Shown: in pieces, positions 46,004 to 49,722 of the stretch
Layout of the letters: the number at the start of each line of letters is the position of its first letter
Numbering within the stretch: position 1 is the stretch's first letter
Assembly (NCBI GenBank): GCA_021325135.1
Contig: JAJPHT010000014.1
Location: 1-64,000 of the forward strand
DNA: 64,000 nucleotides
DNA from: Pseudomonadota bacterium
GTDB taxonomy: Archaea > Thermoplasmatota > SW-10-69-26 > JACQPN01 > JAJPHT01
Reading direction: 5' to 3'
The notes under the pieces: generated by a model
What the model saw: the letters and a program-made list of their open reading frames with translations, nothing else
Database searches by the model: none
What the model was told of the DNA's origin: nothing
Position numbers and translations under genes: made by a program

Positions 46004-46291
46004 ATGCTGGGAGGGAAGCGGAGCGACGTGGCCATCACGCTGGACATCCTGCGCCTCGTCCGGAAGGGCGAGAAGAAGACGCGGATCATGTACGGCGCGA
46101 ACCTCTCCTACGAGATGCTGACCCGCTACCTGGACTTCCTCACGGAGCGCGCCTTCATCCAGGCCGACGCGGCCACCGGCGCCTTCCGCGTCACCGACCG
46201 CGGGGCCTCCCTCATGGCCGACCTGGAGCGCGTCCACCGCCACTTCGAGCCCGCCGAGCGCGGGGACGCCGTCCTCAACGTCCGCATGTAG
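46004..46291 (+). CDS. Archaeal winged-helix regulator (HTH_45/COG3432-like)
   Basis: KRS..I..DIL, KKTRIMYGANLSY..L..YL..L, VTDRG. Confidence 0.88.
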   Translation: MLGGKRSDVAITLDILRLVRKGEKKTRIMYGANLSYEMLTRYLDFLTERAFIQADAATGAFRVTDRGASLMADLERVHRHFEPAERGDAVLNVRM

Positions 46292-47253: not shown

Positions 47254-47314
47254 AGCAGTCCTCCAGAATCCTTATGATGGCTGAGTGGGTCGTCGCGCCA
47301 GTAGAGGCTGGAGC

Positions 47315-48640
47315 ATGGCCCCTGTCACCCCCAAGAAGATGACCCTCGCTGCGACGGGCACGGCCCTCCTGGCGTTCCTGCTGATCGTCCCGACCGTCCT
47401 CGTCGCCTCGGGCGCGCTCGGCCAGAACAACCCCCTCTGCGCGGCGACGGGCTACTGCGCCACGGTCCCCTCCTCCACCGGGAGCACGGGCGCCATCACC
47501 GCCGGTGGCGGCGTCGGCAACCTCGCCGCCGGCCAGTCGGCCACCATCGTCATCGGCCAGCCCACCTCCGCGCCCCTGGAAACCGCGTCGGTCATCCCCG
47601 ACTCGGTCATCAACAACCTCATCTCCAGCCCGGCCACGCTCACCGCGACGCTCAACGACCCCGCCCAGCTCCAGCAGCTCGCGACCGCGCCCGCCGCGCT
47701 CCAGACCCTCCTGGCCAACGCGGACGCCCGCCAGGCCATCCTCTCCAATGCCGACGCCCTCAACGCCATCCTCGGCTCCGGCCTGGGCGCCAGCGCGGCC
47801 CTCCAGAACGACGCGGTCCGCAGCGCCGTCGTGAGCCAGCTGGGCTCCAACGCGCAGCTCACCGCCACCGTCGCCTCCAACCCCGCGGCCCTCACCTCCC
47901 TGCTCCAGGACAGCGGCGCCGCCAGCACCCTCATCAACCAGGTGACGACCAACTCCGCCGTCCTCGACGCGCTCTCCCACAACACCGCGGCCGTGGGCGC
48001 CCTGCTCCAGAACGACGCCGCGCGCCAGGCCATCACCTCCAACGCGCAGGTCCTCAACACGATCCTCCAGAACGTCCTCAACGACCAGCACGTCAGCGCG
48101 GTGGACATCACCGCGGGCCAGGCCGGCTCCAACGTGCAGGTCAACGTCAAGGAGTACCTGCCCAACGACCCCACCCAGAGCGCGGTCAACTCCCCCGAGG
48201 GCAGCAGCCTCGCCCACATCACGCTCCAGGTCGCGACCCCCGACGCGGGCGGCGCCACCAGCTTCGCCGCCATGAAGGTGCTGGACATCAGCACGAGCCT
48301 CGGCGCGGGCGGCGTCTCCGCGGCCACGGTGACCTTCAAGGTGACCCAGGCCGAGCTCCTCGCCATGGGCAAGAGCACGGCCGACATCCGCCTGCTCCAC
48401 CAGGTCAACGGCCAGTGGGTCCCCCTGCCCACGACGCTGGTCAGCGGCCCCGACGCCTCGGGCACGTACACCTTCAGCGCCCAGACGCCCAGCTTCTCCT
48501 ACTTCGCCATCGCGGCCGCCCAGCCCGTGCAGAGCACGAGCGCGGGCTTCGCCGGCCTCGGCGTCGCGCTGCTGATCCTCGGCGTCCTCGCCGTGATCGC
48601 CATCGTGGCCGTGCTCGTGATGAAGAAGAAGCAGGCGTAA
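47315..48640 (+). CDS. Surface protein with helical N/Q/A-rich repeats, PGF-pre-PGF domain and C-terminal anchor
   Basis: ATVTFKV..IRLLH..W..LPT..YTFSAQTPSFSYFAI; AGF + TM + KKK. Confidence 0.8.
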   Translation: MAPVTPKKMTLAATGTALLAFLLIVPTVLVASGALGQNNPLCAATGYCATVPSSTGSTGAITAGGGVGNLAAGQSATIVIGQPTSAPLETASVIPDSVINNLISSPATLTATLNDPAQLQQLATAPAALQTLLANADARQAILSNADALNAILGSGLGASAALQNDAVRSAVVSQLGSNAQLTATVASNPAALTSLLQDSGAASTLINQVTTNSAVLDALSHNTAAVGALLQNDAARQAITSNAQVLNTILQNVLNDQHVSAVDITAGQAGSNVQVNVKEYLPNDPTQSAVNSPEGSSLAHITLQVATPDAGGATSFAAMKVLDISTSLGAGGVSAATVTFKVTQAELLAMGKSTADIRLLHQVNGQWVPLPTTLVSGPDASGTYTFSAQTPSFSYFAIAAAQPVQSTSAGFAGLGVALLILGVLAVIAIVAVLVMKKKQA

Positions 48641-48764
48641 GCCGAACGCTTCCCGGGCGCGGTCGCCGCGCCCGCTCTTCTCCTTCTCCCAGGCTCCTTT
48701 TCTGCAACCCCTTTTGGATCCCCAGCGGGAGCCATGTCGCGTGGGGCTGGAGAGGCAGCGGGGA

Positions 48765-48840
48765 GGCGGCCCGGGTCACGTGACCGGTCACGTGACGCAA
48801 CGCCGCGAGTCACGTGACCGGTCACGTGACCCGGGCCGCC
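48765..48840. promoter_or_regulatory. Nested palindrome: perfect 32-bp arms, 12-nt spacer, four GTCACGTGAC boxes
   Basis: Boxes at 48775, 48787, 48809 and 48821; arms at 48765-48796 and 48809-48840. Confidence 0.8.
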
Positions 48841-48892
48841 CGTTGGGTGATTCCCGGAGAAGAGCCAAGTCTTCCTCAACCCTCCATGGCGC

Positions 48893-49273
48893 GTGGACCC
48901 GATCCCCGCCGAAGTCGAGCTTGCCTTCCTTCGCTCCGGCCACCGGAAGCGCAGCGTGATGATGCTCAGTTCGCTGGGCGAGGCGTCCCCCGGCCAGCTG
49001 GCCCGCTCGCTCGGCCTGCCTTGCACTCGCCAGAGGTGGATCATGGAGGGCGACGGGCGCTACTACAGCAAGGACCTCGCTCCGGTCCAGCTTGGCCTCG
49101 CGACGCTCATCGAGGCTCCGCGGCGGCGGAAGTACGTCATCACGCCCTTGGGGCGCAAGATGGCGCGCCGGTTCACGGCGCGAGAGGCGCGGAGGGCCCG
49201 CCGGGCGGCCGCGATCAAGCGATCCGATGAGGCGCACCGGAACGGCGAGCCGACGCCCGTGGAAGAGGGGTGA
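48893..49273 (+). CDS. Winged-helix DNA-binding protein, EarA/DUF1495-like
   Basis: RS..RKR..L..QLAR..G.GRYY....V.LGL....KYVITPLG resembles the euryarchaeal archaellum regulator family. Confidence 0.7.
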   Translation: MDPIPAEVELAFLRSGHRKRSVMMLSSLGEASPGQLARSLGLPCTRQRWIMEGDGRYYSKDLAPVQLGLATLIEAPRRRKYVITPLGRKMARRFTAREARRARRAAAIKRSDEAHRNGEPTPVEEG

Positions 49274-49431
49274 GCGGGCTTGCGCCAGGGTCGCGCGACC
49301 CCGTCCTGTTTCCTGCGCACCTTGGCCCCGACCAAGAAGCTGGGATCGCGACGGCGGCTCCCTGGCGCAGCGCCCCCGCTGGGGCTCCAGAAAAGGCTGC
49401 AGAAAAGGGGTTCTTGTTCTTGGCGCCGGTC

Positions 49432-49722
49432 TCAGAGGACCGAGGCGACCTTCGTGATGACGATCATCGCGAAGATGAACATGAGGGGGATGATGGCGAC
49501 GTTGAGGTTGGCCGCGTAGAAGCGGGCCGCCTTGGCCTTCCAGGTGTGCTGGACGCGGTCCTCGGCGGCGTAGGCCAGGAGGAGCTCCTTGGCGACGAGG
49601 AGGCCGATGAGGAGGAGCGTCGCGAAGACGCCCAGGGCAACGGCCTGCTGCACGGTGATGGCGGCGACGACCGCCGTGGTCGTGGTCGCCGTCGTGGCCG
49701 CAGCGGTGGTCGTGGTCATCAT
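49432..49722 (-). CDS. Small 2-TM protein with poly-Thr N-terminus
   Basis: MMTTTTAAATTATTTT; LLIGLLVAKEL; LNVAIIPL; TATA-like CTTATC upstream. Confidence 0.8.
   Translation of the reverse strand: MMTTTTAAATTATTTTAVVAAITVQQAVALGVFATLLLIGLLVAKELLLAYAAEDRVQHTWKAKAARFYAANLNVAIIPLMFIFAMIVITKVASVL

Follow-up and report, generated by a model that had tools for sequence, protein, structure and literature searches.

The structure of AspA, from the Sulfolobus plasmid pNOB8 (PDB 4rs8, 5k5q), has reportedly been solved on centromere DNA. For EarA, four 6-bp sites have been described immediately upstream of the BRE (PMC5512572), with a site spacing of 9–11 bp in Thermococcales (PMC10665913). In bacteria, genes and short repeats are associated in the REPIN/RAYT layout (PMC3116915). 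At the other end of the transcription unit, a pair of consecutive U-tracts is the form that Term-seq in M. maripaludis has established for archaeal terminators (PMC7515710). Here we describe a locus that can be set beside each of these systems: a gene for an EarA-like winged-helix protein that adjoins a four-box palindrome and is enclosed, together with it, by a 37-nt inverted repeat. Among the papers searched, none describes such a layout for EarA-like proteins.

The locus lies in a window of 64,000 nucleotides, the whole stretch of DNA that was analysed, which corresponds to bases 1–64000 of contig C6 in the 94%-complete genome (G000; 3.77 Mb, 71.6% GC, 51 contigs) of an uncultured Thermoplasmata archaeon. 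The sister genome (G002) is a Thermoplasmata MAG. Upstream of the EarA-like gene is a gene for a 451-aa surface protein with a C-terminal transmembrane anchor (47285–48640, plus strand), and downstream is one for a 96-aa membrane protein with a poly-Thr N-terminus (49432–49722, minus strand), both called from open reading frames and codon-position GC. Both neighbours point toward the EarA-like gene segment and form a convergent pair, as an earlier note on this DNA had stated. A foreign origin of the segment was considered; its composition shows no sign of one (70.1% GC vs. 72.4% for the window). Elsewhere in the window, a second small winged-helix gene (46004–46291; Pfam HTH_45, E 4.5e-22) stands at the head of a CPBP-protease/surface-protein block, which lies next to the EarA-like segment and is collinear with G002.

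The EarA-like gene (48893–49273, plus strand) has a GTG start and encodes a protein of 126 aa with a long C-terminal helix. In a profile search, this protein scored 24.5 bits against the EarA-like family of Pfam (PF07381; cut-off 22, E 2.4e-5). All 21 of the 21 aligned family members match the same profile (best E 5.7e-18), and an identical 126-aa sequence is present in the protein collection. An AlphaFold2 model (pLDDT 92.5) consists of helices, a beta-hairpin wing and the long C-terminal helix. A fold search with the 126-aa protein returned generic MarR/ArsR-type matches with Z of about 11–12, with AspA, TubR and Sso10a-2 among the matches in many tied rows, and a sequence search of the PDB gave no match. 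The protein is thus EarA-like by profile and a winged helix by fold, in agreement with the assignment made in the earlier note. In five of the longer family members (L008, L010, L011, L016 and L017), a Pro/Ala-rich linker leads into a shared S-x-[RG]-W-[SH]-[VT] motif at the C-terminus; this tail is absent from the window protein.

The palindrome upstream of the gene, which had been noticed before, spans 76 bp (48765–48840) and has 32-nt arms that are 100% complementary, separated by a 12-nt spacer. It is composed of two inverted units, each with two GTCACGTGAC boxes, and the four boxes begin at 48775, 48787, 48809 and 48821. CACGTG centres are 12 bp apart, and the units are 34 bp apart from start to start. 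Four boxes compare with a chance expectation of 0.08, and none of 100 shuffles had as many. We predict that the palindrome is the operator of the adjacent gene and very probably the site to which the encoded protein itself binds. In two copies, the palindrome extends 7–8 nt past the boxes (48765–48774/48831–48840 in the window and C16:29062–29070/29127–29135). These extended flanks (C6, C16) are locus-specific yet self-complementary, which suggests that the flank was duplicated in inverted and not in direct orientation.

Two further elements of the locus had been overlooked. A promoter-like motif, predicted from sequence (48849–48869, plus strand), begins 8 nt past the end of the palindrome and reads GATTCCCGGA, then GAAG, then CCAAG. 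Its 10-nt core (48849–48858) ends 34 nt before the GTG start. The core occurs 19 times in the genome, and in 11 of these cases a called start codon follows 29–40 nt downstream (mode 34); 3 of the 4 paralogues are among them. The motif fits a BRE/TATA-like element of a putative, nearly leaderless transcript; it may represent a special promoter class or another factor's site. Copies of GATTCCCGGA[G/T]AAG, often followed by CCAAG, were seen on C5, C15, C18, C23, C24, C30, C37, C38, C39 and C50, and the window gene and an unrelated C30 gene share a 25-nt version of the motif without a mismatch.

The other element is a degenerate fifth box, GGTCGCGCGACC (49289–49300), located 15 nt past the stop of the EarA-like gene, with a short T-rich run behind it. 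Outside the arrays, just two sites in the 3.77 Mb match GGTC[AG]CG[CT]GACC, and this box is one of them. The sole find of a bacterial promoter/terminator scan was the hairpin made up of this box and the T run (49288–49301), and Rfam returned merely hairpin-shaped microRNA matches, far below thresholds. The fifth box could serve as an operator downstream of the gene, like those of the paralogues described below, or be the gene's own terminator hairpin.

Homologues of the EarA-like gene were found in 8 of 8 genomes of the window's taxonomic family, at 1–4 copies per genome, and in 0 of 52 genomes outside it. The closest homologue elsewhere in the 61 genomes searched has 50% identity, and homologue P0002 has 57%. 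The proposal in the earlier note that protein and site make up a self-contained module is borne out and extends to the whole family, as most homologues do carry a palindrome: of the 20 family members examined, drawn from nine related genomes, about 15 have a large, near-perfect one of their own next to the start, the stop or both. The family palindromes are lineage-specific and made up of paired CANNTG-type hexamers at a distance of about 12 bp, arranged as two inverted units 33–36 bp apart. The box sequence varies by member (CACGTG, CAGGTG, CATGTG, CACGGG and others), and the geometry is kept in most. Arms of at least 24 nt were present within 220 nt upstream at 6 of the 19 homologue loci that had enough upstream sequence, vs. 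6 of 393 random genes of this genome.

At least five members are bracketed by 21–60-nt inverted repeats of their own boxes, 350–480 nt apart (C5 and C18 in the same genome as the window, L012 in G005, L021 in G002 and L015 in G001). These bracketing repeats are box arrays, not T-rich arms of the kind that enclose the window segment. With its degenerate box past the stop, the window gene is bracketed by its own boxes too. At their own promoters, the C5 paralogue and the G002 orthologue with which it shares 68% identity have kept related boxes. Among the 61 genomes searched, the window's box dyad is confined to the one that encodes the 126-aa protein. This family-wide pairing, and the confinement of the dyad to the genome encoding the protein, support the prediction that gene and palindrome are a matched protein-plus-site module in which each paralogue would have a private palindrome. 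In the C5 paralogue, the second copy of its own type of palindrome falls within the 3′ coding part of the gene (C5:13804–13860; gene C5:13756–14220, minus strand).

The four-box array of the window is one of six copies in its genome, the other five of which are without a gene, and it is absent from 60 relatives. Four of the gene-less (solo) arrays have the 12-nt spacer (C16:29069–29128, C33:115600–115657, C40:186879–186938 and C50:8035–8095), and the fifth is a degenerate copy (C1:9520–9565). All five finds of a paired-unit array scan of the genome were loci of this type, the degenerate C1 copy being below its detection. Across the copies, boxes differ at 4 of 176 positions (2.3%) and spacers at 16 of 48 (33%), and the flanks are barely alignable. 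Since box divergence is far below spacer divergence, the boxes appear to be constrained. The C6 and C16 spacers are identical at 11 of 12 positions in opposite orientation, which indicates that the arrays arose by copying.

Three of four window-type solo arrays with both neighbours callable sit between convergent 3′ ends. Their neighbours include an AsnRS/AspRS-type gene and the PheRS alpha gene, and one array precedes sepF by 101 nt. No array was found at the orthologous 3′ flanks of the AsnRS/AspRS-type and PheRS alpha genes in the congeners with these genes, three for one gene and four for the other. Overall, 8 of 15 classifiable solo arrays are in convergent gaps vs. 15–17% expected; these contexts come from a crude GC3-based gene caller, by which arrays placed inside genes are unreliable. 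Across the family, solo arrays occupy 0–8 other loci per genome: 8 for the G005 type, 6 for the G007 type (inside a longer repeat), about 6 for the C5 type of the window's own genome (several in divergent promoter regions), 1 for the G008 type and 0 for the type of L021 in G002, whose copies are around its own gene only. Upstream of the three archaellin loci of the window's genome (C38, C15 and C12), no CANNTG-N6-CANNTG arrays were present. On this ground we reject the link to the archaellum that the earlier note had drawn.

In G002, the orthologue of the 451-aa surface protein has 69% identity. The surface-gene block and the block with the 96-aa, 248-aa and exosortase genes are in the interior of two different contigs there, and the EarA-like gene segment lies at a synteny break relative to G002. 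No EarA-like gene is present in the 3′ flank of the G002 surface gene. G002 has an orphan array family of its own, with 11 loci, none of which has an EarA-like gene within 1.5 kb. One of these arrays lies directly behind the putative surface-gene terminator, at the spot occupied by the EarA-like segment in the window. The orphan family (L040–L059) is built on the 18-mer CAGGTGACTAGACASSTG, with 27 boxes in a 35-bp register, and some array copies are inside larger repeats with long inverted flanks. At locus L037 (G002:C111, minus strand), immediately past the stop of the surface-protein orthologue, an insert of ~60 nt carries a GGCCGAAC...GTTCGGCC hairpin, and after it the final eight codons of the gene and its stop appear a second time. 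This arrangement resembles that of a small inserted element that duplicated ~22 bp of its target. The hairpin turns up again close to other arrays of G002.

The earlier note had taken the outer inverted repeat as the boundary of a cassette. The repeat itself is real: its arms (48696–48732 and 49372–49408) are 37 nt long, complementary at 31 of 37 positions (84%) and 639 nt apart, and by our own estimate such a match has a chance of ~1e-11 per alignment, or roughly 1e-3 over the whole window. The left arm, on the plus strand, contains two consecutive T-tracts and a small GC hairpin 56 nt past the stop of the surface-protein gene. The right arm, read on the minus strand, contains two consecutive T-tracts 24 nt downstream of the 96-aa gene's stop. 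Read along its neighbour's coding strand, each arm has the layout CCTTTTCTG, a few bases, a second T-tract and then the small GC hairpin. The search for additional copies that the earlier note had proposed was run by BLAST and motif searches over all contigs and found no further copy of either arm in the genome. Likewise, neither a direct repeat nor a target-site duplication was seen at the outer edges of the arms, as had been remarked before. No recombinase was found in or beside the 713-bp segment, and no catalytic gene is inside it.

The twin-T-tract motif of the arms has 26 matches in the genome, of which 24 are intergenic, and 10 of these 24 are at most 150 nt past a same-strand stop codon. 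An arm-like motif is also present at C12:12864 and behind an unrelated gene in the congener G001. In G002, the 3′ flank of the surface-protein orthologue matches one arm at 22 of 26 positions, a score reached by 0 of 500 shuffles; the flank of the 96-aa gene there has no significant match to the right arm (160 of 500 shuffles). With twin U-tracts after the stops, their recurrence elsewhere and their match to the published definition (PMC7515710), we read each arm as the putative terminator of its convergent neighbour. As a caveat, single T4 runs show no excess after stops vs. before starts in this genome (9.3% vs. 10.4%), and U-tract termination as a general rule is not supported by these counts; of the two signals, the twin-tract motif alone proved informative. 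The two arms also agree at 15 of 17 positions outside the T-tracts, a likeness beyond what a generic terminator consensus would explain. The suggestion that the repeats delimit a cassette is at odds with arms that are unique in the genome, follow stop codons, and have their motif in G002 without the cassette and behind unrelated genes. As for a terminator element repeated genome-wide, the arms as such are single-copy, and it is the twin-T-tract motif that recurs intergenically and past other genes.

Taken together, these data are best explained by an ordinary chromosomal gene for an EarA-family transcription factor with its own predicted operator, probably autoregulated, and a dispersed cognate element, the outer arms being terminators of the convergent neighbours. 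We consider this account more probable than not. Protein dimers would bind the two CACGTG-N6-CACGTG units of the palindrome, which ends just upstream of the BRE/TATA-like promoter, the position from which EarA activates. The protein would then control its own synthesis, more plausibly as an activator than as a repressor, since the position of the array relative to the promoter-like motif is a geometry that favours autoactivation. The degenerate box past the stop could serve as a second, weaker site. The whole module would sit in a dead zone between convergent genes, where the 37-nt repeat would be two facing terminators. The solo copies derive from copying and have retained intact boxes, so the protein probably binds them too. 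To the anatomy, family recurrence and copy distribution observed here, the proposal adds binding and autoregulation, which we infer, together with operator, promoter and terminator roles that are assigned from sequence features. Convergent 3′-end sites are unexpected for a factor that acts at promoters, so a simple regulon does not explain the solo arrays. The G002 orphan arrays without an EarA-like gene, the likeness of the arms (15 of 17), the mismatch of the right arm in G002 and the T4 counts were all counted against this account.

How else might the repeats be read? The 37-nt arms could be recombination sites or terminal repeats, with the 713-bp segment inverting or transposing as a unit. 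The repeat is real and well beyond chance, the 15 of 17 shared positions outside the T-tracts invite such a reading, and the segment coincides with the synteny break in G002. The arms have no other genomic copy, however, and they come with neither a target-site duplication nor a recombinase within or next to the segment; in G002, where the cassette is absent, the arm motif is still found with the neighbour gene; and paralogues are bracketed by box arrays instead of T-rich arms. As for an invertible phase switch, inverted repeats do flank the segment, but what they would turn around is a complete gene along with its promoter, set between two terminators, and no consequence for expression is obvious. 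For a mobile regulator bounded by terminal repeats, the arms are single-copy, no target-site duplication was seen and no catalytic gene is inside. We regard inversion or transposition of the segment as very improbable. A selfish or semi-selfish protein-plus-repeat system would place mobility elsewhere: the EarA-like gene and its doublets would co-evolve like RAYT/REPINs or IS/MITEs, the protein would be needed to copy, protect or maintain the solo doublets, and the gene module itself would move between convergent gaps. Genes bracketed by their own repeats are what such a system predicts, as are lineage-specific solo doublets at 0–8 or more loci per genome, the 11 of 12 identical positions of the C6 and C16 spacers (implying copying), orthologous 3′ flanks free of solo arrays in four congeners, the convergent position of 8 of 15 solo arrays against 15–17% expected, the G007 and G002 arrays inside longer repeated elements, and a segment at the G002 synteny break with a different array type at the same spot there. 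Set against this are a winged helix of 100–150 aa without a catalytic domain and the lack of any Y1 transposase (PF01797) in the 94%-complete genome, in a search for which control genomes gave matches. Furthermore, there are ~6 copies rather than tens to hundreds, target-site duplications were not seen, one family member has copies around its own gene only, and the boxes are far better kept than the spacers, which points to long-term constraint instead of recent bursts of copying. On this evidence, a selfish system is unlikely, although much less so than movement of the segment by its outer arms.

A further alternative assigns the arrays an architectural, roadblock or centromere-like role, in which bound arrays would stop read-through or replication forks, bridge sites or mark segregation, and the copy at the gene itself would serve autoregulation. 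Precedents for such an autoregulatory copy are AspA and RTP of B. subtilis. Conserved boxes at gene-less sites beyond T-tracts in convergent gaps are suggestive here, as is the symmetry of the doublets; the long C-terminal helix of the model could mediate higher-order assembly, and AspA, TubR and Sso10a-2 are among the fold matches. These matches are tied with hundreds of MarR/ArsR regulators, however, and no partition genes are adjacent to the EarA-like gene. Such a role is also opposed by several paralogues that have different sites in one genome, by a lack of site conservation between congeners and by C5-type solo arrays that lie in divergent promoter regions instead. Fully symmetrical fork barriers, finally, would stop replication from both sides. 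An RTP/Ter-like replication terminator was considered in its own right and found no support among the best 50 fold matches, which do not include RTP; symmetrical barriers argue against it. We therefore rate architectural sites as distinctly improbable, less so than a movable segment and more so than a selfish system. The centromere-like site envisaged in the earlier note survives within this alternative, weakened by a gene that stands alone, by the missing partition genes and by a likeness to AspA that is that of the generic winged-helix fold. As a speculative extension, which we offer tentatively and consider doubtful, EarA-like proteins of these GC-rich Thermoplasmata and their private doublets may be matched, fast-diverging protein-repeat pairs whose solo doublets would spread as well as persist in convergent gaps without a transposase of their own, either as a REPIN/RAYT-like replicator or as roadblocks or insulators behind weak terminators. 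In sum, what the earlier note saw is real, and its module is right and family-wide; its ideas of repeats as boundaries, of a switch and of a transposon are not supported.

These results yield operator predictions for this clade of the EarA family, namely CANNTG pairs ~12 bp apart in inverted units spaced 33–36 bp from each other, which differ by paralogue; the clade comprises 466 representative clusters at E 1e-3 or better. They also indicate that not all EarA-like proteins are archaellum regulators. Two convergent terminators can by themselves give a gene a conspicuous inverted-repeat frame, which calls for caution in scans for mobile or invertible cassettes. Gene-less arrays between convergent genes, which turn over between species, could reveal a new route of repeat spread or a new use of a protein at archaeal gene ends.

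Compared with archaeal U-tract terminators, each outer arm has the two consecutive coding-strand T-tracts, 24 or 56 nt past a stop. In contrast to those terminators, the tracts are just 4 nt long in a 72% GC genome, and the arms resemble each other beyond the need of a generic signal. AspA is likewise an archaeal winged-helix protein, and the fold match has a TM of 0.64–0.68 (normalised to target), a match tied with hundreds of ArsR/MarR proteins. The setting differs as well: whereas aspA is the first gene of aspA-parB-parA on a plasmid, the window gene stands alone, with no parB/parA operon downstream, in a chromosomal, multi-paralogue context.

The likeness to REPIN/RAYT systems is one of layout. 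Both have short-repeat inverted doublets in extragenic space, often between convergent genes, with a single-copy gene flanked by them; in both, several gene-repeat pairs of different sequence coexist in one genome, and the repeats are lineage-specific. The protein described here is a winged-helix DNA binder and not a Y1 HUH transposase, and there are ~6 copies as opposed to tens to hundreds. Its repeats form perfect double-strand dyads of the kind typically bound by dimers. EarA of M. maripaludis and Pyrococcus furiosus shares PF07381, a small winged-helix architecture and four hexamers just upstream of BRE/TATA (PMC5512572, PMC10665913), but its sites are at an archaellin operon, whereas those described here form perfect palindromic doublets next to the gene of the regulator itself. 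Our genomes also differ in having several paralogues with private sites and dispersed solo copies, and identity between family members is just 25–57%. The published site TACATA and the CACGTG/CACATG hexamers found here all fit YACRTR, which is our own observation and not a tested rule.
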